A stretch of 39,568 nucleotides of DNA from Alphaproteobacteria bacterium (GCA_017546085.1 JAFYXQ010000027.1:1-39568), one strand, 5' to 3'. Counted from the first letter of the stretch, positions 6,586 through 19,234 are shown. The notes: generated by a model from the sequence alone, not told the origin. A program made the numbers and translations.

Positions 6586-6820
6586 TTATTAACCTTTGTT
6601 TATGTTTAACATTGCATAACCACCCAATTCATTACCAATAAGTTTTTTTGCCTATACGTAGTGAATCTGTGGTTATGCGTTCATATCCCATGATATTTAT
6701 TTATTCCAATAAAAACACAGGAATTATTTCATGCAGATGTATTGTTATCTGCATCCCCTACATGATAAATTCCTACATATTGTAGTACAAATTTGTCTAA
6801 AATCAAGCCAATAAATGAAA

Positions 6821-6847
6821 TTCGCCCATTCAACACAAATGGGCGAA
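6821..6847 (-). terminator. intrinsic terminator at the distal end of the phage-like block
   Basis: Stem TTCGCCCA / TGGGCGAA with an 11-nt loop, directly after the stop at 6852. It is followed on the minus strand by T-rich sequence. Confidence 0.6.
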
Positions 6848-6851
6848 TGAT

Positions 6852-7109
6852 TTATTTTATTACCGCACCCTTGATTAAATTCAGGTCTTCTTTGATATCA
6901 TCAATTTTTATCTGAATTTGACCAATGCCCGTTTCAAGTATTGTTGTGCGGTTTTCGAGTGATGATACACGTGCATTTACACGTTCAAGTTCTGATACTG
7001 AAAAATCTTGGCGGGCAACCCAATAAATTAGCCCGCCAATAAAAGCAATCAAAAACCAACTGTCGCGCAAAAAGTCAATAAAAGATATTGCACCATTACT
7101 TCCCACCAT
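6852..7109 (-). CDS. phage-block membrane protein (one TM helix plus coiled coil)
   Basis: The ORF-track start at 7136 is a TTG. The internal ATG at 7109 has a G-rich SD (GGGGGG). Features are a TM helix WFLIAFIGGLIYWV followed by a heptad-like C-terminus. Confidence 0.5.
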   Translation of the reverse strand: MVGSNGAISFIDFLRDSWFLIAFIGGLIYWVARQDFSVSELERVNARVSSLENRTTILETGIGQIQIKIDDIKEDLNLIKGAVIK

Positions 7110-7308
7110 AATCAGCCCCCCGTCCACGCGATACAAGGGATTCTATTTGATGAATAAGGGAACGCTGACCTTCGACAAAGCGAAGTTGCGAATCCGACAC
7201 ATCCGGTCCCAGCGCACGTTCAATCGTTATTTGGCGCAAATGTTCCAATACGCGTTTGCCTGACGCAGTTCCAAATGTGCGAGCATACGACTGTTCGATA
7301 TCTATCAT
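7096..7308 (-). CDS. small phage-block protein, function unknown
   Basis: 70-aa ORF whose start overlaps the portal stop in an ATGA arrangement. Confidence 0.5.
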   Translation of the reverse strand: MIDIEQSYARTFGTASGKRVLEHLRQITIERALGPDVSDSQLRFVEGQRSLIHQIESLVSRGRGADYGGK

Positions 7309-8540
7309 AACTGCCCCCCAAGAACTGATTCAATCGCCGTCATTTGCGCAATTGGGGCGATATATTTTAATTCTGCATCACCATTTAATTTTATTGGTAA
7401 AATTAATCCACGCGATGACAAAATTTGTAGCCCCCTGTCGCATAGTGGCCTGATAAATTCATGCAGCAAACGCCCATATGTTGCACCCAAGATTCGCATC
7501 ATATCTGAATTTCGCGCCATGATTTCCGTTGCTGTCATTTCTTTTTCTGACAATAATCCTAGTCTGTCTGCAAGCATCGTATGGCGTATGCGTTCGCGTA
7601 AATCCTTTAAAATAATTTGCGACACATCAAAATTTGAACCGCTTTGCAATGGTGTCAGACCAGTTGAACCGACCGCCTTAGGTATAATGGCACCTGGGGT
7701 CAGATTTATGTTATTTAGATTTATAACACCATCATCATCTGCCTGCCAAATGCCTGATACTGCGATAGTCGCGTTTTTCAAAACCAATTCTACAACCTTG
7801 TTCGCGGTTTTTATATCTGGCATTGCACGTAATACAGGACCGCGACCGTACAATTCACCACTGATTACTGACCAGCGAAAGATTATATACGGATTCGTTT
7901 CAAATGAGCCTGTGGATACAATATTATTTTCAATATCACCACCGACATCCAACCAAGCTGTAAATTCTGTACCAACCAAGGACTGAACTAACTTTAATTG
8001 TGTTTCCGGATCGCGTTTTATCATATCACGCAAATTTGCAGGAGGTGTCCATGTTGGGTATCGCGATATCACCTCATTGGCAGACATAGATGTGGTGTGA
8101 AATACTGCATTTGGTAAAATCGCAATGTCAGACATTGGAATCGCCGTAAATGTAAATGCCGACGATGAACCTATTGGGGATTGCCCCATAAATAAGCACG
8201 CAGTCCCCAATGTTACCAAATCCATATAGCACTGATGTATCGTGGTATAAAAATTAGAATCATTTAGATTTGAACGCAATACAGATGTAGCATAATCTGC
8301 ATTTTGGGCAAAATCGCTTTCGCCAACCAACTGAATCCATAATGATTCTGGCGGGGTTAACAAAGTATAAATAGATGCCGCCAAATTGTCTGCCGCATCC
8401 GATGCAGTCGCGTCAAACAATGTTGCTGCTTCATCATCAGCAGTTGGCATTGTATAACGACGCGCATCATCCCAACGACGTAACCATGGTTCGCGTTTAT
8501 CCAAGGCCTGTTTATACAAAGAATATAAGTTTTGTTTCAT
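7305..8540 (-). CDS. portal (head-to-tail connector) protein, T7 gp8-like
   Basis: N-terminus SLYKQALDKREPWLRRWDDARRYTMP parallels T7 gp8 SVYERLKNDRAPYETRAQNCAQYTIP. The internal GELYGRGPV parallels gp8 GESYGRSYI. An AAGGAG SD is present. Confidence 0.8.
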   Translation of the reverse strand: MKQNLYSLYKQALDKREPWLRRWDDARRYTMPTADDEAATLFDATASDAADNLAASIYTLLTPPESLWIQLVGESDFAQNADYATSVLRSNLNDSNFYTTIHQCYMDLVTLGTACLFMGQSPIGSSSAFTFTAIPMSDIAILPNAVFHTTSMSANEVISRYPTWTPPANLRDMIKRDPETQLKLVQSLVGTEFTAWLDVGGDIENNIVSTGSFETNPYIIFRWSVISGELYGRGPVLRAMPDIKTANKVVELVLKNATIAVSGIWQADDDGVINLNNINLTPGAIIPKAVGSTGLTPLQSGSNFDVSQIILKDLRERIRHTMLADRLGLLSEKEMTATEIMARNSDMMRILGATYGRLLHEFIRPLCDRGLQILSSRGLILPIKLNGDAELKYIAPIAQMTAIESVLGGQL

Positions 8541-8584
8541 GATAAAAAAACTCCTTTTTTTAGGTTATGAGTGTTCTTTGCTTA

Positions 8585-9448
8585 TTAAATTTTGAAATTT
8601 GTGTTTGCTGAAAATGTCTTTATCGTTCCCCCAACTGGGCGCACAGGTATCGGGGGCTGTGCAATCGCGCCTGCCACAGCATCAAGTCCATCATCATGCA
8701 TACCATTGCCCAATGGGGACCAACCCAACATTTCTGACATTAATGGGGTTTGTGTTACGCGCGCATGTGCGTACAGGCGCCCTGTGGACAAAACCGGTTC
8801 AATTGCGTCTAAGATTCGATCTGATTTTGCACGATTGTTTGAAACCCGATTTACATAGATATTCATTCCGCTGCGCGATGCACAATCACGCATAATTTCG
8901 GGTATTCCGCCGCCAATTCCATTTGTTTCAATTGTTATTCGACACAGTCCATATTTTCGCATGAATTCAAGAACCATATCACACTGTTTTGACAATGGGA
9001 ATTGTTCTTCGTCTGACACAGTTAGATACAAGATATTATGTATAAAAACTGTGCGCGACCTGTCATCACGATACAATAAAACACAGGCACTGCCATCGCG
9101 TCCCCTGCGTCCAGTTGACGGATCCCAATACAAAACAGAACCTGAAATCTGATACGTTCCGATTTTTGCATTGCGCGCATCAAATTCCATATCATAAAAA
9201 TGAATTCCGCCAGGGTCTAAACGCGCACGATCCGGCGGCATGAAATCGAGCATCATTTGCGCAGAAAAATGTCGCAGTCCAACAATTTCACGCATTTGTT
9301 CAATCTTGTCTATTGGGAACAATTCCGGCCACACAGGATTTCCATCACTGTCAACTATCGGAATTCGTAATATTTTATACCCCCGTAAAAAAGGAATTGA
9401 AAAAGCATTTTTTTCATATAACATTGAACCAAAGAAGGAATTAGACAT
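8585..9448 (-). CDS. terminase large subunit, C-terminal (nuclease) half of a split gene
   Basis: VWPELFP...FSAQMMLDFMP linker, YWDPSTGRRGRDGSACVLL, ITIETNGIGGG and HDDGLDAVAG fit a TerL RNase-H-like nuclease domain. The start is placed at the ATG at 9448, which has a GGGGG SD. The ORF-track start at 9523 is a TTG lying antisense to dnaB. Confidence 0.72.
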   Translation of the reverse strand: MSNSFFGSMLYEKNAFSIPFLRGYKILRIPIVDSDGNPVWPELFPIDKIEQMREIVGLRHFSAQMMLDFMPPDRARLDPGGIHFYDMEFDARNAKIGTYQISGSVLYWDPSTGRRGRDGSACVLLYRDDRSRTVFIHNILYLTVSDEEQFPLSKQCDMVLEFMRKYGLCRITIETNGIGGGIPEIMRDCASRSGMNIYVNRVSNNRAKSDRILDAIEPVLSTGRLYAHARVTQTPLMSEMLGWSPLGNGMHDDGLDAVAGAIAQPPIPVRPVGGTIKTFSANTNFKI

Positions 9449-11012
9449 GGATTTTACCCCCAAAACTTTGCCAACTAATTTAGAAGCAGAACAAGCCGTA
9501 CTGGCCGCGGTTTTAATGAACAACCGTGCACTAGAACGCGTATCAGAATTCCTGAAATATGAACATTTTTCACATCCTGCACATCAAGAAATATACAAGT
9601 TAGCGGAAAAACAATTCGCAGCAGGGATTCCTTTTGATATTATTACGGCGAAAAACTACCTTGACCAACAGGGGGTCTTAGAATCCGTTGGCGGGGTGGA
9701 TTATTTGACCCAATTGTCTGGCGCGGGCGCAACCGTTGTTAACGTGGAACAATACGGACGCATCATCTATGAACATGCGTTACGTCGCCAATTGATTAAT
9801 TTAGGTCAAGATATTATGGACAAGGCATTTATCGAAGACCTTGATACGCCTGTTACACGCCAAATTGAATTAGCAGAATCTAAATTATTTGATATGGCAA
9901 CATCAGGTGCATCTGAACGTGAAATTACATCCATTTCAACTGCGTTACAAAGCGCACTGGCCGAAGCAGAAATCGCATACAAGGCAGATGGACAATTGTC
10001 TGGTCTGACCACGGGACTTAACGCGCTCGATAAATCAATAAGTGGTTTGCACCATTCTGACTTGATTATTATCGCAGGTCGTCCTGCGATGGGAAAAACG
10101 ACATTGGCTATGAATATGGCATTTAACGCCGCAAATGCAATTGCGTATGGGCGCGCAAATAAAAATTACAAGGGCGCCGTCGTATTTTTCAGTCTTGAAA
10201 TGTCCGCATCACAATTGGCGGCACGTGTGCTGTCTTCGCAATCAAAAATTCCTGCATCAGCAATGCGTGAAGGGACATTGACTGATGAAGATTTCCTGAA
10301 AATGTCCCAATATTCTGCTGCAATCGGCAAGGTACCTTTGTTCATAGATGATACACCTGGTATGTCAGTACCGATGATGCGAACACGTGCACGCAGATTG
10401 GCGCGCAAACATGGTGGAATCGCGCTAATTGTAATTGACTACCTGCAATTGATGACAGCCCCAGGTGGCAAACGCAGCGACAACCGCGTTCAGGAAATTT
10501 CTGAAATAACACGCGGTCTTAAAATGCTGGCCAAGGAATTAGATGTTCCTGTTATTGCACTGTCCCAGCTATCCCGAAGTGTAGAAGCGCGCGATGATAA
10601 ACGTCCACAGTTGGCAGACCTGCGTGAATCAGGGTCTATTGAGCAGGACGCGGACATCGTTATGTTTACATATCGTGAAGAGTACTATCTGCAAAACCGC
10701 GACCCATCAGAAAGATTATCAAATACAACAAACAATACAATGGTTGAATCGTGGCAAAAACGCCTTGAAAAAGCACGCGGCAAGGCTGATATCATTATCG
10801 GAAAAAACCGACATGGACGCCCAGAAACGGTTCGTACCGCTTTCTTTGGTGATTACAGTTTATTTGATAATTTGGACGAATTCCAATCGCGTGGCGATGA
10901 TGAATTTGCGCAACCCGCCCAAACAATTTCTGCAAGTTCATTGACACCAGATCCAGATTCTATGCCAACGGCGATTGATCCAAATGAAATTCCTGATGAT
11001 ATGCCGTTGTAA
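9447..11012 (+). CDS. dnaB: replicative DNA helicase DnaB
   Basis: Start moved to MDFTPKTLPTNLEAEQAVLAAVL (GAAGGA SD). Walker A GRPAMGKTT, Walker B LIVIDYLQLM, SQLSR and ADIVMF are present. There is an acidic C-terminal tail of about 45 aa. Confidence 0.93.
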   Translation: MDFTPKTLPTNLEAEQAVLAAVLMNNRALERVSEFLKYEHFSHPAHQEIYKLAEKQFAAGIPFDIITAKNYLDQQGVLESVGGVDYLTQLSGAGATVVNVEQYGRIIYEHALRRQLINLGQDIMDKAFIEDLDTPVTRQIELAESKLFDMATSGASEREITSISTALQSALAEAEIAYKADGQLSGLTTGLNALDKSISGLHHSDLIIIAGRPAMGKTTLAMNMAFNAANAIAYGRANKNYKGAVVFFSLEMSASQLAARVLSSQSKIPASAMREGTLTDEDFLKMSQYSAAIGKVPLFIDDTPGMSVPMMRTRARRLARKHGGIALIVIDYLQLMTAPGGKRSDNRVQEISEITRGLKMLAKELDVPVIALSQLSRSVEARDDKRPQLADLRESGSIEQDADIVMFTYREEYYLQNRDPSERLSNTTNNTMVESWQKRLEKARGKADIIIGKNRHGRPETVRTAFFGDYSLFDNLDEFQSRGDDEFAQPAQTISASSLTPDPDSMPTAIDPNEIPDDMPL

Positions 11013-11026
11013 AAAATAATTATTTT

Positions 11027-11067
11027 ACTTGCGCAAGTCCTAAAAATTGACTATTATTTTGTCAAGT
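11027..11067 (+). promoter_or_regulatory. candidate operator/promoter region upstream of the double-HTH gene
   Basis: Perfect 12-bp palindrome ACTTGCGCAAGT (11027-11038). An inverted TTGAC/GTCAA pair lies at 11047-11065, and a further CAAGT half-site at 11063-11067. Confidence 0.3.
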
Positions 11068-11089
11068 AATAGTTTTTAGGAGTTTTGCT

Positions 11090-12097
11090 ATGGCCCAAGA
11101 AGAAATTATATTTCCAAATAATATTCGCAACATTCGTTTGGCAAGCGGCATGAAAATGACAGAATTGGCACGAAAAAGTGGCCTGTCCCTGTCTGCTGTT
11201 TCAAAAATCGAAAAAGGTGTACGTCGCCTGAACCAAAAGCAGTTGTTGAATGTTTGCAATATCTTAGGATGCAAATTATCTGATATTTTCATCAAGGAAT
11301 CTGATGAGGTTGCAGACAAATGGCAAAACGAAATCAAACGTCGTATGAATGATAACGAAAATAATGGACTGAAAATTTTTGGTAGTGGGCTGCGCAAAAT
11401 TCGTCAATTATCTGGAAAAACAATTGCACGCGCCGCCAAGGATGCAGGTATGACATTATCTGTTTATCATAAAATCGAGGTTGGCCAACGTGAAATCTAT
11501 CAGAATGAAATTGAACCGTTGGCAAAATCTTTTGCAATGGGCGCAGAACAAATGTTTGATAAAATTGCTGATTTATACAAATCTGGCGAATTGAACAAAC
11601 ACATCAATAAGGTTAAAGAACGTGTTAAATCTGTTCTTATTCCTGGCAGTCCTGTATCTGGCATTGATATGCAGGGCAGTTTGTATGGCGCAAAATTGTA
11701 TGATAGCGCACGTAAAAAGTTAGTTCCTGTGTTTGGTACACCATCTGGGAAATCAATTGCATTCAAAAAATCTGACAAGACAATGATTGTTGCGCCTGGC
11801 GAACTCGAAGGACGCAAGGGTGTTTATGCCATTATTCCAAATACAAAAAGATTAGGTGGAATCATTCCTGAAAAATCGTATGTTTTTGCAGATGCTACAA
11901 AAACCGCCCAAGTTGGCGATTTGGCAGTATGTATCGATACTGACTTTGATTCATTGGATACAGAAACCACTGTTTCTGCACAAATTGTCAGCGTACGTAA
12001 AGATGCCAAGGGAAAGATTTTTGGACATGTTTTATCCCCAGAAGAAAAAATTGTTGGAAAAACCATGCACCGTATCGTTATGATTATCATGGAATAA
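11090..12097 (+). CDS. XRE-family regulator with two HTH domains and a degenerate S24/LexA-like C-terminal domain
   Basis: Two Cro/C1-type HTH units are present (IRNIRLASGMKMTELARKSGLSLSAVSKIEKG and LRKIRQLSGKTIARAAKDAGMTLSVYHKIEVG). The C-terminus has a GD-hydrophobic beta pattern like the S24 fold, but GII replaces the catalytic Ser motif. An AGGAG SD is present. Confidence 0.7.
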   Translation: MAQEEIIFPNNIRNIRLASGMKMTELARKSGLSLSAVSKIEKGVRRLNQKQLLNVCNILGCKLSDIFIKESDEVADKWQNEIKRRMNDNENNGLKIFGSGLRKIRQLSGKTIARAAKDAGMTLSVYHKIEVGQREIYQNEIEPLAKSFAMGAEQMFDKIADLYKSGELNKHINKVKERVKSVLIPGSPVSGIDMQGSLYGAKLYDSARKKLVPVFGTPSGKSIAFKKSDKTMIVAPGELEGRKGVYAIIPNTKRLGGIIPEKSYVFADATKTAQVGDLAVCIDTDFDSLDTETTVSAQIVSVRKDAKGKIFGHVLSPEEKIVGKTMHRIVMIIME

Positions 12098-12125
12098 TCT
12101 ATAACCATAACAGGAGAGAGACACC

Positions 12126-12764
12126 ATGAAGGCAAAAATTCGCACAAACGCATCAAAGCTGCTAAATCTATATCGTCAGGCGCACGTTATTGTTGGTGGT
12201 TGGTCCGCAGTTAACCCTATCTTCGTTAATGAAACAACAGATGAAATTATTCAGGAATTGCAAAATATGCCAACGGGTAATTTGTTGATTCAGCATATCC
12301 AGAATCTGCGCAATGGCATAACCCCAATGAATACGATTAATCGCGAATTGTTACCATATGGCGGTATGATGGCGGACGAGGTTTTATCAATTTCACTAAC
12401 TAATGCGCAATGGCGTGAAATCGAAGATGCGGTTAATGAATTTACACCCGATGAATATGGTTTAAATCATTTTTTGTCCCTTGATATTGTAAAGCGTTTT
12501 GGTGCGGAATGGCCCACTGCGTTACGTGCAATATTATCTGAAAAACCATACCTGAAAGAAAAATGGGATACTGTAATCCAAACATATAATGCATATCGGC
12601 TGTGGAATACTGCACGTGATATTATCGCTGCACCAATTTCTGAACGCGTGCGCGCACAGGTTCAGGTTGATATGCCAGAATACGAAACATATCTGCCAAT
12701 GTTTGGCGACGCGGGTACAGATTTGCTTGAAAAACTGCGTACATTTATCAGTTCCATGAATTAG
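12126..12764 (+). CDS. hypothetical protein
   Basis: 212-aa ORF with a GGAGAG SD. It converges on the TerL N-half stop with a 2-nt gap. I recognise no family. Confidence 0.55.
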   Translation: MKAKIRTNASKLLNLYRQAHVIVGGWSAVNPIFVNETTDEIIQELQNMPTGNLLIQHIQNLRNGITPMNTINRELLPYGGMMADEVLSISLTNAQWREIEDAVNEFTPDEYGLNHFLSLDIVKRFGAEWPTALRAILSEKPYLKEKWDTVIQTYNAYRLWNTARDIIAAPISERVRAQVQVDMPEYETYLPMFGDAGTDLLEKLRTFISSMN

Positions 12765-12766
12765 TA

Positions 12767-13363
12767 CTATTCTGTTCGATATATTGTATCGTGCGTATGT
12801 GGTGTTCCGATGTATATCATCGAACCTGATGGCGATAAGATAAAATCAAGCTCGCGCAGTCTTTCGCGTAAATCTTCACGTTTCTGTACCGTGTTTGATG
12901 TGTTTGGAACCTCGACATCGTCGCATATTATTAGGTCTGCACGCATACCTGTTATATTTCCATGAATTCCCTGACAGATAACAGAAGGCTCACGAATCCC
13001 AATTGGCCGATTAATCGTTATGCGACCCGCAGACCATTCTTTCTTGTTCGCTGGAATCAATTCTGTACACCATGGATGATTTTCCAATATATGCCGAATA
13101 TGCGAAACCATGCGTGTCGACAAACCATTTTCCGCAGACAATATTAAAATTCGCGTCTGTGGGTATAAATACAAAACACATGTGGCAAATATACCTACAA
13201 CCGTGGATTTACCAGAATGCCGAAATGCCATTAACAATCCACGGCGCGGCGATTCTTCAAAGACACTCACCAAAAATTCCATTATTCGACGGTGATGCGC
13301 TGGGGTCGCAAAACCTAAAACACGATTCCATTCATCTAAAAAACTAACAAATTCCGCAATCAT
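12767..13363 (-). CDS. terminase large subunit, N-terminal (ATPase) half of a split gene
   Basis: Walker A FRHSGKST, Walker B DLIICDDVE and IYIGTP are present. The ORF stops right after the ATPase core (…HDTIYRTE*). Confidence 0.8.
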   Translation of the reverse strand: MIAEFVSFLDEWNRVLGFATPAHHRRIMEFLVSVFEESPRRGLLMAFRHSGKSTVVGIFATCVLYLYPQTRILILSAENGLSTRMVSHIRHILENHPWCTELIPANKKEWSAGRITINRPIGIREPSVICQGIHGNITGMRADLIICDDVEVPNTSNTVQKREDLRERLRELDFILSPSGSMIYIGTPHTHDTIYRTE

Positions 13364-13704
13364 GCCAGTTCATCGATTCTTGATAGCAAAGACCTTAATA
13401 GGTTTGTTTTTTTAGCCTTGGCCGTTTTTAATTTGTTTAAATTTGTAATATGTTTTTCTTCGTATGGCGCTGCGGTTTCTGACTTAAGACGCTTTAAAAC
13501 CGCACCTTCGCTGATACCAGTCGCCGACATTCCTGATGCGCCAAATTTTGCACGTTGGGTCGCAAGTGCTTTTTTAACGAGATTTGTTTTTTCTTTTTTA
13601 TCTGATGCCATTTGCATCAAGATTTCTTTGCGTTGTGATTTTGCCGTTTTTTTATCATCTTTGTAATCTAGCAAGTCTGTTACGTCAGATACAATTTGCC
13701 CCAT
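13360..13704 (-). CDS. Lys-rich small protein (possible small terminase or internal protein, by position only)
   Basis: 114-aa ORF whose stop overlaps the TerL-N start (ATGA). I recognise no motif. Confidence 0.5.
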   Translation of the reverse strand: MGQIVSDVTDLLDYKDDKKTAKSQRKEILMQMASDKKEKTNLVKKALATQRAKFGASGMSATGISEGAVLKRLKSETAAPYEEKHITNLNKLKTAKAKKTNLLRSLLSRIDELA

Positions 13705-13738
13705 TTTAAATCCTTTTTATTTTATGTGTTGTTTTTTG

Positions 13739-15454
13739 TTAAATGCTATAACTGCCATAAATTGTTACGGATATAACCGTTATTGGATACGGTTCTGAAC
13801 CATGTATCACCCAAATTGGTTTCATAAAATCGCCGCTTGTTCCAAATAAATTGATAGACACATCGCCACTGAAACCTGTGCAATCTGATGTGTATATTTC
13901 ATTTGGCAACGATACACGATGATTATTTATGAAGACCGATTTGGTATCAATTACACGCGCAGTTAATTTTCGTACCCTGAATTTTTGTGCGTTATGTTTT
14001 GAAAAACGCAATGGTAAACCAGATGCACAAAACGAAATATTCATATTTCCGCAATCATACATTTCATTGACATCAAAATATTCCAATAAAAAATTATCGC
14101 CACGCGCAATCACAGCATAGGTTTTATTATCGCATGTACATACTGATAAAAATCTGCCATTTGTTTTATAGGTGCCCCATGCTGATATTCCCAATGTTGA
14201 ATTACGATTCAAGACCGCCATTTCACCATCCGAACGCACAATATACAAACGCCTTTGCGATGCGTTATAAGTCATATCTGTCGGTTCATGCAGCAAATGC
14301 TTGGACAATGCACACAAATCGTTTGCGTTATATTTCCCCCCTATTTCATCAAGGCTTAACTCACGAACGTCATGCCCATTCCCTGATATAAATATTGTTG
14401 TATTTTCTATTTTTTGTGGTGGTAAATAATGTGATGGATACGAACCGACTGATGTATGTTGCATAATATTAACAGACGACGGGGTTAGTGGACTATTTGA
14501 TATTACCCATTCCCCAACATTTGTCAGGATCTGCAGGTTATCACTGCTGACAATTGTACAAATTTGCTGACGCTGCTTTGATAGCAGGGTTATAAATATT
14601 GCTTCGTTGTCAAGGCCTGTACCGACATTAAAATTATCATGCACCCCAACATGAGACATCCATATTCCCGATGGCCAATCGCGCGAACCGCCAAATATCA
14701 ATCTATCCTGATGAAATGTGATACTGCATGGCCAACCACGACGATTGCTGAACGCAGATTCAGACCAATCGGATATCGCATTTGATGGCGCAGTATATGA
14801 ACCATTCGTATATGCAACAACCTGGGTTGGGCTGATATATTCTGTTATCAACCACTGACGTTCAAGAAAATATAAACGTCCCAAGACATTATCGGATGTC
14901 CAAAAATTCTTATTCGTGGTTAATGTTGCATAATTATTGCCGGTATTATTTGCAGATACAGTGATGGTAATATCAGATGCGTCATCAAATTTTAAAAATG
15001 GTATATTCACAGACATATATGAATCATTGCGCAAGAACGCAAAATCAGACATTTTAAAAATATCATCATCCTTGCTTAGAACTTGGGGCATATGATCGGG
15101 ATGAACAAATATCATCGTGCCAAATCGTTGGGCGTATTGCAATAATGATAAATCCTGATACGACCACGGTGTAATCAAATCTTGATATCGCGTATCGTTA
15201 TGATATATATACATATGGTAATCTGTCATAACGATTAAATATTCTTCATCGTCTGATATAGAAAAGGAAATTAGACGCGCCGCACCACGCAATGTCGCAA
15301 TACTTTTTAAACCCGCACGACGTGATAAACCGCCACCAGATAGAACATCCATATTTTCTAATTTTGACAACCCATTTATATTATCACGTGCAAAAAATTC
15401 GGGCGAAACTTCGCCATCAGAAAATAAATTCTGCGTTTTTATAAATTCTGTCAT
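13739..15454 (-). CDS. tail tubular protein B / nozzle, T7 gp12-like
   Basis: N-terminus SDGEVSPEFFARDNINGLSKLENMDVLSGGGLSRRAGL parallels T7 gp12 KGGISQQPDILRYPDQGSRQVNGWSSETEGLQKRPPL. The internal FHQDRLIFGGS parallels gp12 FFRNRLGFLSG. At 571 aa it is shorter than gp12. Confidence 0.6.
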   Translation of the reverse strand: MTEFIKTQNLFSDGEVSPEFFARDNINGLSKLENMDVLSGGGLSRRAGLKSIATLRGAARLISFSISDDEEYLIVMTDYHMYIYHNDTRYQDLITPWSYQDLSLLQYAQRFGTMIFVHPDHMPQVLSKDDDIFKMSDFAFLRNDSYMSVNIPFLKFDDASDITITVSANNTGNNYATLTTNKNFWTSDNVLGRLYFLERQWLITEYISPTQVVAYTNGSYTAPSNAISDWSESAFSNRRGWPCSITFHQDRLIFGGSRDWPSGIWMSHVGVHDNFNVGTGLDNEAIFITLLSKQRQQICTIVSSDNLQILTNVGEWVISNSPLTPSSVNIMQHTSVGSYPSHYLPPQKIENTTIFISGNGHDVRELSLDEIGGKYNANDLCALSKHLLHEPTDMTYNASQRRLYIVRSDGEMAVLNRNSTLGISAWGTYKTNGRFLSVCTCDNKTYAVIARGDNFLLEYFDVNEMYDCGNMNISFCASGLPLRFSKHNAQKFRVRKLTARVIDTKSVFINNHRVSLPNEIYTSDCTGFSGDVSINLFGTSGDFMKPIWVIHGSEPYPITVISVTIYGSYSI

Positions 15455-15481
15455 AAAAAATCCCCTATGGTTTGCACAAAT

Positions 15482-16000
15482 TTAATAACGAACGTTTAAT
15501 AATGAAAAATTAGATATAGATTCAGAAGTACATGATGTGCTGTCTATAAATTTTGCAGACTGTAATTCTGTTTCATACAATGCAACCAACATTCTGTATA
15601 TTGAACTATCACCAATTAGCGGCATACAAAATTCCATTGCGAGACGGGTCGCCGCCAAGGAAACAAAATAACTAGGGAAGTATTCGGGCGACGTCCGCAC
15701 AAGCGCAGCTATCGTTGTTTTATCGCCTATGGCAGATATTTTATTTCCTAATATTTTACCCCTGCTTTTTATTATTCGTAAAACATTTGATGGAATAATA
15801 AAATCACCATCTGTGTTTTTTATTAATTCCATATCACATGTTGCAAAGCGCCATGGATACGATGAAATTAATGTATCAATTACAACATCAAATAATGTGC
15901 GCGATAATTTTGCAGACGCACTATCATCTGAAAAGGACTGAATTGGGGATTCCCCAAGTTTTAATAACGCCATAGAACATAAGTCTATTTTTGTAACCAT
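15482..16000 (-). CDS. tail tubular protein A / adaptor, T7 gp11-like
   Basis: IDLCSMALLKLGESPIQSFSDDSASAKLSRTLFDVVIDTLISSYPWRF parallels T7 gp11 [45 protein letters not shown]. An AGGGGG SD is present. Confidence 0.65.
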   Translation of the reverse strand: MVTKIDLCSMALLKLGESPIQSFSDDSASAKLSRTLFDVVIDTLISSYPWRFATCDMELIKNTDGDFIIPSNVLRIIKSRGKILGNKISAIGDKTTIAALVRTSPEYFPSYFVSLAATRLAMEFCMPLIGDSSIYRMLVALYETELQSAKFIDSTSCTSESISNFSLLNVRY

Positions 16001-16031
16001 AAAATTCCCCCTATTATCTTTTAATCAAATC

Positions 16032-16060
16032 AAGGTCGGCGATATCACCGACCTTTTTTT
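16032..16060. terminator. hairpin between the capsid-proximal genes and the tube genes
   Basis: Stem AAGGTCGG / CCGACCTT with an 8-nt loop. The plus strand has T7 downstream, so on the minus strand an A-run precedes the stem. This is a bidirectional-type hairpin. Confidence 0.45.
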
Positions 16061-16078
16061 AAACAAATATAAATAAAA

Positions 16079-16309
16079 TTATGACAACGCAATCGTTGTT
16101 ACATTCAAATCTGTAACGTTGATTTTTTTGATAGCTGTATTATCTGAACCATTGATAATTATAATATCACCAATGTTCATCAACGTTTTAACACTGTTAA
16201 AATAACCGTTGGCGGAAATTGTCGCCAATGTTTCAGGCGCGCTATAATGCCACAATGTAAATCCGTTTGCATACGCAATTACAGATAAATTTTTATTCTG
16301 AAATGCCAT
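16079..16309 (-). CDS. small protein downstream of the capsid gene (decoration or head-completion candidate)
   Basis: Start moved to MAFQNKN (AAGGAAA SD), giving 76 aa. Function is unknown. Confidence 0.5.
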   Translation of the reverse strand: MAFQNKNLSVIAYANGFTLWHYSAPETLATISANGYFNSVKTLMNIGDIIIINGSDNTAIKKINVTDLNVTTIALS

Positions 16310-16338
16310 GTTATTTTCCTTTTGGTAAAATTGTGAAA

Positions 16339-17166
16339 CTATGCAATATCGCCATCCGAACACTTAATGCGAACAATACCATCGCCGTCAATTAAAACAG
16401 CCCCTTGGGACATACTGTTGCTGATAAAGTGCGCCGCACGTTCCCCATGCCAAGAAATATCCGTTTTAACTTCCTGACCACAGGCATGACCAATACTTGT
16501 CGCATGATAAATAAAACAATCGCGATTTGTTTCGCTGACCGGCAGACCGTTATACAACACCCAATTGATACCCAACCATTTGCGATTTTCAAAACCATTT
16601 AACAACGGTGTATTGGACCCAACATAATCAGCAGAAACAAATTCATCCATTGACAATAATTCATTCCACTGATGCACACCAACAACTGCAAAACGACGAC
16701 CATCGTCTGGAACGTCATTTGTGTTCAAGATTTCAACTGCTGATAAAATCAATTCTTTGGTCAGACCTGTTGAATAATCACCAACAGATGCAGTTGTGGT
16801 GTTCATCGCTTCAACAATTAATTCATCCGTCTTGCGTCCCAATGCATATGCACCAGCAGATGCAACAACACGACGTTCGTCGATGTTTGTTTTTAATTCA
16901 TCCATGCTGTCAACCCAATCGCCAGCATAGTAATCTTGTAATAAACATTCAACCGGTTCATGATTTAAATTCATCACAGGAACAATCCCATGACGCGATT
17001 TTGTGCTGGCAATGCCACGACCAACCTTTTGAAAGGTTGTAGATGCACCGACAACACCTGATTTACTGCGTATTGTGCCACGCAATTTTGTGCCCATTTG
17101 CTGATACGCCAAATGAACATCTGCTTCGAATTGTTTTACGAAGACATTATCTATGGAAACAGACAT
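16339..17166 (-). CDS. major capsid protein (HK97-fold, T7 gp10-like N-terminus)
   Basis: Start moved to MSVSIDNVFVKQF (AAGGGA SD). FVKQFEADVHLAYQQ...GASTTFQKVGRG parallels T7 gp10 FLKVFGGEVLTAF...GKSAQFPVLGRT. It lies after a scaffold-like gene. Confidence 0.78.
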   Translation of the reverse strand: MSVSIDNVFVKQFEADVHLAYQQMGTKLRGTIRSKSGVVGASTTFQKVGRGIASTKSRHGIVPVMNLNHEPVECLLQDYYAGDWVDSMDELKTNIDERRVVASAGAYALGRKTDELIVEAMNTTTASVGDYSTGLTKELILSAVEILNTNDVPDDGRRFAVVGVHQWNELLSMDEFVSADYVGSNTPLLNGFENRKWLGINWVLYNGLPVSETNRDCFIYHATSIGHACGQEVKTDISWHGERAAHFISNSMSQGAVLIDGDGIVRIKCSDGDIA

Positions 17167-17353
17167 AAAAAAATCCCTTGTGTTAAAATTAAAAGACCGA
17201 CACATCTGTATCGGTGTTCTGATTTTGTATTTTGGTTATGCAAATAATGCGCCAGAAAAACAAAAGGTTATTTGGGTCCGTAACTTAATACAGATTATCC
17301 GATAAAAAAATATCAGTCAGACTGTGCACATTTAATCTGACTGATAAATTTCT

Positions 17354-17380
17354 AAAAAAATCCCCCGCTGATGCGGGGGA
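17354..17380 (-). terminator. intrinsic terminator after the Lys/Ala-rich gene
   Basis: Stem TCCCCCGC / GCGGGGGA with a 4-nt loop, followed on the minus strand by T7. Confidence 0.7.
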
Positions 17381-17387
17381 AATTATT

Positions 17388-17753
17388 TTATTTTTTCTTG
17401 CAAACTTTTTTTGCAACTGGTTTTTTTACTGCCACTTTTTTTACAGCAACTTTTTTTGCAGCTGGTTTTACAGCTACTTTTTTAACTGTTGCTTTCTTTG
17501 CAACTGGTTTCGCAGCAACTTTCTTAACTGCTACTTTCTTTGCAGGTGCTTTCTTTGCAACTGGTTTCGCAGCAACTTTTTTAACTGCTACTTTCTTCGC
17601 AGGTGCTTTCTTTGCAACTGGTTTCGCAGCAACTTTTTTAACTGCTGCTTTCTTCGCAGGTGCTTTTTTTGCAACTGGTTTCGCAGCAACTTTCTTTTCA
17701 GCAGCCTTTGCAGCAGCTTTCTTCGCGGCAGATTTTCTAAACAAGAATGCCAT
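17388..17753 (-). CDS. Lys/Ala-rich histone-H1-like basic protein
   Basis: Start moved to MAFLFRKSAAKK (AAAGGAGAG SD). The protein is almost entirely the repeat KKAPAKKVAVKKVAAKPVA. Confidence 0.7.
   Translation of the reverse strand: MAFLFRKSAAKKAAAKAAEKKVAAKPVAKKAPAKKAAVKKVAAKPVAKKAPAKKVAVKKVAAKPVAKKAPAKKVAVKKVAAKPVAKKATVKKVAVKPAAKKVAVKKVAVKKPVAKKVCKKK
17500..17700. repeat. 57-bp tandem repeat, about 3.5 copies, inside the Lys/Ala-rich gene
   Basis: The unit gcaactggtttcgcagcaactttcttaactgctactttctttgcaggtgctttcttt repeats at 17500, 17557 and 17614 with few substitutions, and a partial copy follows. Confidence 0.85.
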
Positions 17754-17859
17754 TCTTTCTCTCCTTTCACTAATTTTTGGATAGAACAAATCCGTTTTGT
17801 TCTTGATTTACATTTTATACTAAATACAAAAATTAGTAAAGCGGAAAGTACATATTTTT

Positions 17860-18519
17860 TTATTTTGAATATAATTTTTTAAATCCGTTTTCTATTTTTC
17901 TAATATATTCTGCATCGCCATCACGCCAATATTTTGGATCGCGCATCATACGACGCAAATCAGAATCAGATAAATTTTCAGACGATGACGAATCTGTTTT
18001 TACATCAGGTTCCATCGACAGCATCATTTTATAAACGCTTTGAATTCCTTGGGGTGTAGCACACAACGCTTCAAATGCATCACATGGTAAAAAACGTTCA
18101 CCAAATAAATTTATTGCATGCAATGCGTCGTTCATTTTTTCTGTTCCACCAAAAAAATTTTTTAATTCATTTATTGCACTACTTTCATTTTGCACAGAAA
18201 ATAAATCTGATATTACAGGCGATAAAAATTCATTTACGACATCATAAATTTTTTCCACTTGATTTTTTGTTAGACCAATTTCTAAAAATTTTTGTCGTAA
18301 ATTTTCATCATCATACATTTCATTCGTCGGATATTCTGATGCTTTTTCAGGAACGCCAATTGCACGTTTGAATTTGTTTCGTGTATCTTCATCCGAATCT
18401 GAATTTGGAATCGTTACCATTGAACCAATTTTCTTTTCCAGTTCTGTATAAGATTTTATCAAGGCATCCGAATTTAATGAGCCATCAGAATTTAAAAATT
18501 TTTCCGGAATATTATTCAT
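17860..18519 (-). CDS. capsid scaffolding/assembly protein, T7 gp9-like
   Basis: Start moved to MNNIPEKF (AAGGA SD). The C-terminus LRRMMRDPKYWRDGDAEYIRKIENGFKKLY parallels T7 gp9 MIKAMSDPRYRTDANYRRQVEQKVIDSNF. Confidence 0.7.
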   Translation of the reverse strand: MNNIPEKFLNSDGSLNSDALIKSYTELEKKIGSMVTIPNSDSDEDTRNKFKRAIGVPEKASEYPTNEMYDDENLRQKFLEIGLTKNQVEKIYDVVNEFLSPVISDLFSVQNESSAINELKNFFGGTEKMNDALHAINLFGERFLPCDAFEALCATPQGIQSVYKMMLSMEPDVKTDSSSSENLSDSDLRRMMRDPKYWRDGDAEYIRKIENGFKKLYSK

Positions 18520-18709
18520 CTTTTTGTCCTTTGTTTTCGTTTGATTTACGTAAAAAATAAATTCCACCAAGTGTAAAAATTGATTGCAACATTATAAATA
18601 TATCTGTATCGCCAACTAAATATGCGGCAATCGCAGATATGATTCCAGTCGCGGAAATTATATATGTACGGTGGCCAGATAAAAATCCACCCTTGATTAT
18701 TGTTTTCAT
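18512..18709 (-). CDS. holin-like small membrane protein
   Basis: 65 aa with two predicted TM helices and a charged C-terminus. It lies between the endolysin and scaffold genes and overlaps the scaffold start by 8 nt. Confidence 0.5.
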   Translation of the reverse strand: MKTIIKGGFLSGHRTYIISATGIISAIAAYLVGDTDIFIMLQSIFTLGGIYFLRKSNENKGQKDE

Positions 18710-18719
18710 AAACACACCG

Positions 18720-19130
18720 TTATAAATAAAATAAGAAACCATCTATGTCAGCAATATAACCACGCGACAATGCCCATTGCGGTATTATATCCGCAGAATG
18801 AAATCTGGTTGCGCCAAAACATCTGTCAGCCAAACCATTTGCCAACATGCGCCGCGCTGTGCGCAGACACATTTCAAAGCCCCTATTATTCGCAGCAACA
18901 AATATGCGTTCGTGGTGTTCTGATTTTTCATCTAATACATCAAATATATTTTTATCACGAATTATGTCCGATATTGTGAGCCCTGTTTTTTCAGATATAT
19001 TTTTTATCATCGATGTCATCGCTTCGACCAATGATAATGATGATGCACCTGTTTGTGCATATACAGTACGCGCAACCTGATACGACAATGTTGCGGACGT
19101 GTCTGCGTTTTTAATTAATGTTAAATGCAT
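18720..19130 (-). CDS. cell-wall hydrolase, SleB/Hydrolase_2-like (endolysin)
   Basis: Start moved to MHLTLIKNAD. ARTVYAQTGASS...AMTSMIKNI...GATRFHSADIIPQWA...DGFLFY fits the SleB-type pattern (ARTiyaEa ... gAt.fh ... P.Wa ... h.Fy). Confidence 0.72.
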   Translation of the reverse strand: MHLTLIKNADTSATLSYQVARTVYAQTGASSLSLVEAMTSMIKNISEKTGLTISDIIRDKNIFDVLDEKSEHHERIFVAANNRGFEMCLRTARRMLANGLADRCFGATRFHSADIIPQWALSRGYIADIDGFLFYL

Positions 19131-19148
19131 TTGTTGTTGCCCTTGGAT

Positions 19149-19207
19149 AAAAAAATCCATGCAAAAAAATTGCATGGAAAATAAAAAAACCACAACAGAT
19201 GTTGTGG
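19149..19207 (-). terminator. two tandem intrinsic terminators between birA and the endolysin start
   Basis: Hairpin 1 is CCACAAC-atct-GTTGTGG plus T7 (19183-19207). Hairpin 2 is TCCATGCA-loop-TGCATGGA plus T7 (19149-19178). Only about 18 nt separate the second T-run from the endolysin ATG. Confidence 0.6.
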
Positions 19208-19234
19208 GCATAATCTTCGCTGTTTACGTATTGT

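Follow-up and report, generated by a model that had tools for sequence, protein, structure and literature searches.

A T7-type large terminase encoded as two open reading frames on either side of a dnaB operon in a phage-derived cluster of gut Alphaproteobacteria

The window analyzed here (positions 1-39568, the whole stretch of 39,568 nucleotides) is host chromosome of a Candidatus Enterousia-type gut alphaproteobacterium of the order Rs-D84. On its minus strand lie two open reading frames (ORFs), TerL-N and TerL-C, which jointly constitute a complete T7-type large terminase (TerL) and are separated by 3.3 kb of opposite-strand genes that include dnaB. Both halves are under strong purifying selection and are not pseudogenes. 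From the sequence data, we consider it likely that they belong to a domesticated cluster resembling a gene transfer agent (GTA), the two-polypeptide TerL of which is interlocked with the dnaB operon of the host. The features of the two halves are as follows.

12767-13363, minus strand: TerL-N, 198 amino acids, N-terminal part of a T7-type large terminase.
8585-9448, minus strand (ORF open to 9523): TerL-C, 287 amino acids from the in-frame ATG at 9448.
First ~16 residues of TerL-C, minus strand: tail without counterpart in intact TerLs.
Residues ~17-72 of TerL-C, window 9233-9400, minus strand: ATPase lid/linker segment.
Residues ~83-287 of TerL-C, minus strand: RNase H-like nuclease, with a match to PF22530.
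Chain ends: C-terminal ..TIYRTE for TerL-N, predicted N-terminal peptide MSNSFFGSMLYEK for TerL-C.

TerL-N contains Walker A (GKST), Walker B with the catalytic Glu (DDVE, within ICDDVE) and the C-motif (GTP of IYIGTP); its stop codon lies 9 residues past the C-motif strand. TerL-C contains VWPELFP...FSAQMML, YWDPS and HDDGLDA. An earlier note on this DNA had described both halves, and when the sequence was re-read all of its coordinates, strands and motifs and the N-to-C order were recovered, as were dnaB, a double helix-turn-helix (HTH) regulator and a 212-amino-acid ORF on the plus strand between the halves. In a single TerL profile, PHROG_38, the two halves matched neighboring stretches (positions 272-459 for TerL-N, E 5e-41; positions 466-702 for TerL-C, E 8.5e-35), which is far beyond chance. 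Both also matched NCBIfam termin_lrg_T7. Against NF033889, a model built for one chain with a cut-off of 150 bits, the N-half alone scored 227 bits and the C-half alone 102 bits. TerL-N aligned with residues 18-215 of T7/PhiV-1 gp19. ATPase and nuclease are therefore not found on one polypeptide here, but in two ORFs 3.3 kb apart in all relatives.

The nearest intact TerL relatives are 481-509 amino acids long and ~50% identical. The summed length of the two halves is 485 amino acids (198 + 287), with ~6 positions of the PHROG_38 profile unmatched. When aligned to intact TerLs, as had been proposed earlier, TerL-N ended at ...IGTPHTHDTIYRTE and the homology of TerL-C picked up at ...FSIPFLRGYKILRIPIV. 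The break falls in a hydrophilic loop between TIY and PFLxGF, which comprises 6-17 residues and varies in length in intact proteins. In this alignment no conserved residue was lost at the junction and no essential segment was missing.

An AlphaFold2 model of an artificial fusion of the two ORFs, based on an alignment of 49 intact homologues, had a predicted local distance difference test score (pLDDT) of 92.9 and a predicted template modeling score (pTM) of 0.86. Confidence was low only at residues ~199-220, corresponding to the junction. The model matched the TerL structures of PhiV-1/T7, T4, Sf6, HK97 and D6E. Past the junction it displayed a beta-strand (223-227), the invariant WPE motif, two helices (244-262) holding the invariant Gln of SQMML, and then the first nuclease strands, the first catalytic Asp of the nuclease being fused residue 307. 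TerL-C thus carries the ~60 pre-nuclease residues of intact TerLs (strand YKILRIPIV, WPE motif, and helices with the invariant Q of SQMML). Fused residues 215-270 were assigned to the ATPase module from the order of motifs in intact TerLs and from solved TerL structures. The break therefore separates the C-motif strand of the P-loop core from the lid/linker that follows it, and does not coincide with the ATPase/nuclease boundary. Of the "ATPase and nuclease halves" proposed previously, the division of TerL into two ORFs stands, but TerL-C also holds ~60 residues of the ATPase lid/linker.

A homology search with TerL-N gave 890 homologues. The best 120 of these were all 198-220 amino acids long, with 78-99% identity, and came from gut Alphaproteobacteria and Candidatus Enterousia metagenome-assembled genomes (MAGs), on contigs of up to 857 kb. 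Species-representative genomes were scanned as well; Candidatus Enterousia and further gut Alphaproteobacteria of Rs-D84 yielded at least 569 stretches that matched. Eighty loci fetched from these stretches were compared together with L001-L003; ~74 species-level relatives span both halves. The split was found in the relatives with the same cassette, and there was neither an intact TerL at the locus nor relaxed selection. Gene order was identical in essentially all loci wherever the contig reached: LipB, hydrolase, scaffold, capsid, orf94b, tubA, tubB, gp14-like, (fibre), TerL-N, then orf212, HTH regulator and DnaB on the other strand, followed by TerL-C, portal, Bbp19 and orf94. The cassette measured 3.3-3.4 kb in all 74 loci spanning both of its ends. 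TerL-N stopped 1-20 residues after TIYRT in all loci, with a variable tail. In one MAG, JAZTWT01, the TerL-N region was present on two contigs (L014 and L024, 82% vs 80% identity), which are probably two strains binned together rather than a duplication.

Selection was assayed by pairwise Nei-Gojobori comparison of codon alignments (40-82 loci per gene), and pairs with a synonymous divergence (dS) of 0.1-1.2 were kept. Omega was 0.079 for TerL-N and 0.130 for TerL-C, compared with 0.132 for LipB, a housekeeping neighbor, 0.051 for DnaB, 0.063 for the portal, 0.066 for the capsid, 0.074 for the HTH regulator and 0.20 for orf212. Over capsid, portal, tail tube, scaffold and terminase, the values ranged from 0.06 to 0.21. 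Considering all pairs, synonymous differences were saturated (~0.72) and non-synonymous differences amounted to 0.14 in TerL-N and 0.25 in TerL-C. Despite this saturation, the ORF was intact in 82/82 (TerL-N) and ~68/69 (TerL-C) species-level loci. Residues that are invariant across intact and split TerLs were 100% conserved, both in TerL-N (R48, K52, D148, D149, E151, G186 and T187; scored in 82 loci) and in TerL-C (D109, D118, E174, N176, K208, D252, D253 and D256; scored in 71 loci). One locus was degraded: in L025 (9600-14400), the 3' part of the capsid gene, tubA, tubB, gp14-like and portal were deleted and TerL-C was truncated after ~100 amino acids, leaving TerL-N, orf212, the HTH regulator and dnaB intact along with the first ~100 codons of TerL-C. 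This fits dispensable particle genes next to a cassette that is essential together with its promoter.

The cassette and the signals at its border with TerL-C are listed below.

9447-11012, plus strand: dnaB, replicative DNA helicase, first cassette gene (Pfam DnaB and DnaB_C).
11090-12097, plus strand: HTH regulator, 335 amino acids, two HTH_3 (Cro/C1-type) domains and an uncharacterized C-terminal domain, found in all loci.
12126-12764, plus strand: orf212, 212 amino acids, all-helical, clade-restricted.
9446-9449, both strands: shared start CATG, with the dnaB ATG at 9447-9449 (plus) and the TerL-C ATG at 9448-9446 (minus).
9457-9461, minus strand: Shine-Dalgarno-like run of TerL-C (CCCCC, GGGGG on the minus strand), 8 bases upstream of the ATG and inside dnaB codons 4-5.
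9387-9420, plus strand: dnaB promoter-like element AAAAAAGGnnTTGAAAAAGCATTTTTTTCATATA, with TTGAAA at 9397-9402.
9434-9439, plus strand: dnaB ribosome-binding site GAAGGA.

The dnaB product scored 616.8 bits with the equivalog model NF006606 (cut-off 540) and 505 bits with TIGR00665 (cut-off 385); with the phage_DnaB model it scored 404 bits, under the cut-off of 499. The cassette dnaB is thus of the housekeeping alphaproteobacterial type, and DnaB is the most conserved protein of the locus (77-92% identity). Genomes of Enterousia-type hosts measure 0.75-1.0 Mb (PMC12306168), so that a second dnaB is unlikely. The "insertion cassette" of the earlier note is accordingly present as 3.3 kb of opposite-strand DNA, but as a housekeeping-type dnaB operon and not as a recent mobile insertion. 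For orf212, no match was obtained in Pfam, PHROG, NCBIfam or PADLOC, and its 1072 homologues, all "hypothetical", occur only within the clade. Its AlphaFold2 model was all-helical (pLDDT 78), with no Foldseek match in the PDB. The PADLOC search for defence systems returned generic HTH matches only. orf212 and TerL-N are convergent, and their stop codons, 2 nucleotides apart, leave no room for a terminator.

At the other end of the cassette, the start codons of dnaB and TerL-C overlap at the CATG, with the GGGGG before the TerL-C ATG, both as previously pointed out. The TerL-C Met over the dnaB start was kept in every locus covering the region; in L017, where the palindrome is broken, the TerL-C ATG is kept one codon away. 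A GGGG(T) 8 nucleotides 5' of this ATG was conserved across 59-73 loci. In the dnaB direction, a consensus promoter match was found at 9397-9424, and the promoter-like element and ribosome-binding site together (9387-9439) overlie TerL-C codons ~4-21. Normalized synonymous-site entropy was 0.04-0.25 in TerL-C codons 1-28 vs ~0.70-0.75 elsewhere in these genes, and the dnaB-sense motif AAAAAAGGCGTTGAAAAAGCAtttTTTTcATATAC was conserved in 73 loci within these 5' codons. This collapse of entropy and the conserved motif place the promoter and leader of dnaB within the first ~25 TerL-C codons. A weak dip, without a conserved motif, was also seen in synonymous conservation at dnaB codons 26-42. The interlocked starts and embedded signals help to explain why the arrangement has remained frozen.

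The same break was found in other lineages. In L097 (121 kb contig, GC content 57%; 8001-9658), TerL consists of adjacent ORFs of 224 and 326 amino acids with nothing between them; the first ends in ...TIYYERGLPPPIKAEA and a stop codon, separated by two bases from the next ATG (stop-AA-ATG). This pair lies in a T7-like cluster beside FtsY, whereby the portal and scaffold genes are 3 kb away and have the opposite orientation. In L088/L089 (1.47 Mb contig; 10001-11480), the two ORFs overlap as ATGGGTGA behind a GGAGGA Shine-Dalgarno sequence, and the pair stands alone among host genes. In both lineages the break occurs at the same loop after TIY, both ORFs are intact and have a Shine-Dalgarno sequence, and the N-half is 39-45% identical to that of the window. 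Their spacing suggests that each pair is translationally coupled. L098 (8001-11785) is the closest outgroup cluster, with a capsid 67.5% identical to that of the window. Its TerL-N stops at ...TIYKV and is followed by a GH108 lysozyme gene and small ORFs on the same strand, with no TerL-C before the contig end; the gap between the halves may thus be a hotspot for gene insertion. Intact TerLs were found in other relatives (L084, L086), while the TerL of L099 is decayed, with a deleted C-motif and a frameshift. Two short N-half-like proteins (L090, L091), with single in-frame stops and on tiny contigs, were uninformative. A metagenome scan with P0151 for the adjacent-split lineage gave only matches of 27-29% identity. 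A neighbor-joining tree of the N-half region was star-like and did not separate a shared from a separate origin of the splits. Altogether, the TIY loop is a tolerated break point, and the gap can then take up other genes. This suggests that the split came earlier and the cassette later.

The terminase genes form part of a 12.4 kb cluster (6852-19211) between host genes, with XseA, TsaD and RNase J on one side and LipB, rpsD, LpxI, outer-membrane proteins, RadC, Map and NrdDG on the other. Its remaining features are:

6820-6848: terminator-like hairpin at the cluster end.
6852-7136, minus strand: orf94, membrane/coiled-coil protein, 94 amino acids.
7096-7308, minus strand: Bbp19-like.
7305-8540, minus strand: portal, downstream of TerL-C.
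13360-13704, minus strand: gp14-like, upstream of TerL-N.
13739-15454, minus strand: tail tubular B.
15482-16000, minus strand: tail tubular A.
16079-16363, minus strand: orf94b.
16339-17205, minus strand: major capsid protein, 288 amino acids, PF19821.
17388-17789, minus strand: Lys-rich orf133, 133 amino acids, weak HC2 histone-like match, between scaffold and capsid.
17860-18570, minus strand: T7-type scaffold.
18512-18742, minus strand: holin-like ORF, 76 amino acids, two predicted transmembrane helices.
18720-19211, minus strand: orf163, Hydrolase_2-like, homologous to Hydrolase_2 cell-wall hydrolases in relatives.

The first two genes of the cluster, orf163 and the 76-amino-acid ORF, are a candidate endolysin-holin pair. 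The sequence of orf133 is not conserved in most relatives, and a strong bidirectional hairpin terminator (17361-17380) follows this gene. Family searches of 6852-19211 detected neither an integrase nor a polymerase, and no further gene for phage replication. Between pairs of loci, the distances for terminase, portal and capsid correlated with those for LipB and DnaB (Spearman 0.42-0.80). Structural and lysis genes that lack replication or integration functions and are vertically inherited make the cluster, known from its genes, a candidate GTA, derived from a domesticated phage module of the T7/BPP-1 type. According to the earlier note, inactivation of the terminase would immobilise the element. 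The element is immobile, owing to domestication of a phage-derived cluster and not to a dead terminase.

Between gp14-like and TerL-N, 60/78 loci contain a 182-amino-acid fibre gene (e.g. L001:9496-10044), the first 100 residues of which match the N-terminal domain of T7 gp17-type tail fibres (phrog_1640, E 5.8e-16). A 158-amino-acid Mtd_N protein is encoded a few kb beyond the portal end in L001 (20314-20630) and L002 (17637-18113), with variable LemA/LRR genes intervening; the window contains nothing comparable. Mtd is the major tropism determinant of Bordetella phage BPP-1.

In the arrangement that we favor, the P-loop core with its Walker A, Walker B (including the catalytic Glu) and C-motif would come from TerL-N. 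TerL-C would add the next beta-strand and the lid/linker helices, which also belong to the ATPase module, together with the RNase H-like nuclease. Both chains would reassemble non-covalently into the usual TerL fold, and the 3.3 kb between them would be the cell's dnaB operon (dnaB, double-HTH regulator, orf212), running in the opposite direction. That the two chains are active, that particles are produced and that DNA is packaged are predictions from the comparison of sequences. A gene cut by 3.3 kb of opposite-strand DNA is usually a pseudogene, and inactivation by insertion, leaving decaying remnants in a dead prophage, was one of two explanations given in the earlier note. Some relatives are indeed decaying, as indicated by the C-motif deletion and frameshift of L099 and the deletions of L025. 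However, ORFs intact in nearly all loci at saturated synonymous sites, omega values of ~0.1 and invariant catalytic residues make this explanation the least credible of those considered, especially as the alignments are not of near-identical strains (identities 51-89%), nothing is missing from the protein, and split and cassette occur in all related genomes examined, none of which has an intact gene at this locus. The other explanation, a two-polypeptide enzyme, gains strong comparative support; the break is not at the domain boundary.

The halves might also be retained for reasons other than packaging: TerL-C for the dnaB promoter, TerL-N for the end of dnaB-operon transcription inside it, or either as an exapted stand-alone ATPase or nuclease. 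The nucleotide constraint imposed by the dnaB promoter on the first ~25 TerL-C codons, the lack of space for a terminator between the convergent stops of orf212 and TerL-N, and the retention of TerL-N and the first ~100 TerL-C codons in L025, which has lost tail genes and portal, would all be expected in this case. We nevertheless consider it unlikely: purifying selection extends over the full length of both proteins, synonymous sites away from the 5' end of TerL-C are as free as those of other genes, and every catalytic residue of ATPase and nuclease is invariant. Moreover, selection of equal strength has preserved the portal, capsid, scaffold and tail-tube genes alongside the two halves, which fits a working packaging machine. 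It is very improbable that the halves are joined before use, whether by excision or inversion of the cassette (as for skin/sigK), by trans-splicing of RNA or by a split intein. Joining would agree with the collinear order and shared orientation of the halves, and loss of dnaB would presumably be harmless in GTA producer cells, which lyse. Yet domain searches revealed no recombinase gene in or beside the cassette, and a repeat search of 8400-13500 found only chance-level repeats of 12-13 nucleotides at its borders. Rfam searches gave no hit in the whole window at the gathering threshold or in 8400-13500 at E<=1. Among the ~70 loci inspected, TerL-N ends in tails of 1-20 variable amino acids and TerL-C starts with MSNSFF.. 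or MSD..; an HN-C/S/T junction, as expected of an intein, was not seen. The halves have a conserved stop codon, or a start codon with a ribosome-binding site, of their own. A split caused by a homing endonuclease was rejected, as the cassette encodes DnaB, an HTH regulator and an all-helical protein and no HNH, GIY-YIG or LAGLIDADG gene.

Several points weigh against a working two-polypeptide terminase in a GTA-like cluster. The main one concerns transcription of TerL-C, portal and Bbp19, which would have to proceed across or within an essential operon of the opposite strand; no clearly conserved promoter motif was seen on the TerL-C strand within the first 240 nucleotides of dnaB. Translation of TerL-C from the ATG at 9448 and association of the two chains are predicted, and the fold model, being that of an artificial fusion, does not extend to the assembly of separate chains. 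The constraint at the 5' end of TerL-C owes partly to the dnaB promoter and not to the protein, and TerL-C diverges faster than TerL-N (51-80% vs 76-89% identity). That the cassette gene would be the sole dnaB is deduced from a genome size under 1 Mb. In the cluster no small terminase was recognized. Finally, the window (junction 13360-13365) and 16 relatives cleanly lack the fibre gene, and the window has no copy elsewhere; particles of the window type may be fibre-less, or their fibre may be encoded at another site.

With regard to transcription, read-through from TerL-N might proceed antisense across the cassette and thereby silence the dnaB operon; TerL-C and portal, for which no promoter of their own was recognized, would be expressed in this way only. 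In such a commitment switch, which we regard as doubtful, transcription of the particle operon would collide with that of orf212, the HTH regulator and dnaB. If true, cells of the subpopulation that releases particles by lysis would shut off replication as they complete the packaging motor.

T7 gp19 (NF033889; PDB 4BIJ, 8DGC) belongs to the same family as the split TerL, with the same motifs, the fold of the fusion model and the same neighborhood of tail tube, gp14-like and portal genes; the window, in contrast, encodes the enzyme in two ORFs, with 3.3 kb of host genes in opposite orientation between them. In isolated phage genomes with a full-length match, TerL was a single ORF in 138/138 cases, at <=28% identity. 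The adjacent two-ORF TerLs of L097 and L088/L089 share the loop break but, unlike the window, have nothing between their halves. Phage terminase genes with introns or inteins, and the two-exon pUL15 gene of herpesviruses, also have interrupted coding sequences, but these are rejoined by splicing into one polypeptide, whereas no signature of an intron or intein was found here, and start and stop codons are present in both halves. Closer in outcome are the NrdA of Aeromonas phage Aeh1, split by the homing-endonuclease gene mobE, and the T4 topoisomerase genes 39 and 60, where a one-chain enzyme is made as two reassembling chains with a break in a permissive loop. The present case differs in the absence of a homing endonuclease, in the intervening DNA, an essential host operon of 3.3 kb in opposite orientation, and in the conservation of the split across hundreds of species. 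We know of no characterized tailed-phage or GTA terminase made of two separately encoded chains, nor of a cellular operon between such halves; to our knowledge, ATPase core, lid and nuclease are on one chain in every characterized tailed phage (our check of the literature being incomplete on both counts). Large terminases are the strongest known molecular motors. A split under selection across hundreds of species would be a natural fragment-complementation experiment, and a cut between P-loop core and lid/linker could show how force generation is coupled to lid and nuclease.

GTAs and viriforms (RcGTA-like, BaGTA, VSH-1 and the podovirus-like FpGTA of Faecalibacterium) likewise consist of head, tail and lysis genes without replication or integration genes, and the cluster, like GTAs, stays at one chromosomal site, co-diverges with its host and is under purifying selection. 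It differs in its T7/BPP-1-like module, as descriptions of recognized alphaproteobacterial GTAs do not call them T7-like or podovirus-like, and in its split terminase and internal dnaB; its particles and their packaging of host DNA are predicted. BaGTA is also tied to a replication function, namely a phage-derived origin (PMC9662315). A 2026 paper describes the FpGTA of Faecalibacterium as the first podovirus-like GTA-like element. In the literature on Enterousia and Rs-D84 found by a partial search, phage or GTAs are not mentioned. It is conceivable, though doubtful, that the two-piece terminase is the hallmark of an ancient, unrecognized family of T7-like GTAs in Alphaproteobacteria. The data suggest that uncultured gut Alphaproteobacteria with reduced genomes harbor a large and so far undescribed group of domesticated T7-like particle clusters, which could mediate gene exchange in animal guts. 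The interlock is itself unusual, with the promoter of an essential replication operon lying in a phage-derived coding sequence, whose ribosome-binding site is in turn carried by the first codons of that operon.

Another cellular-type gene inside a structural operon was observed in the Rhodospirillales-type loci L099 (1361-2199, 11217-13055) and L086 (555-2381), where a metallo-beta-lactamase/ODP gene immediately precedes the capsid gene in opposite orientation. In these loci, the Hydrolase_2 gene adjoins a PF11351 GTA_holin_3TM gene.

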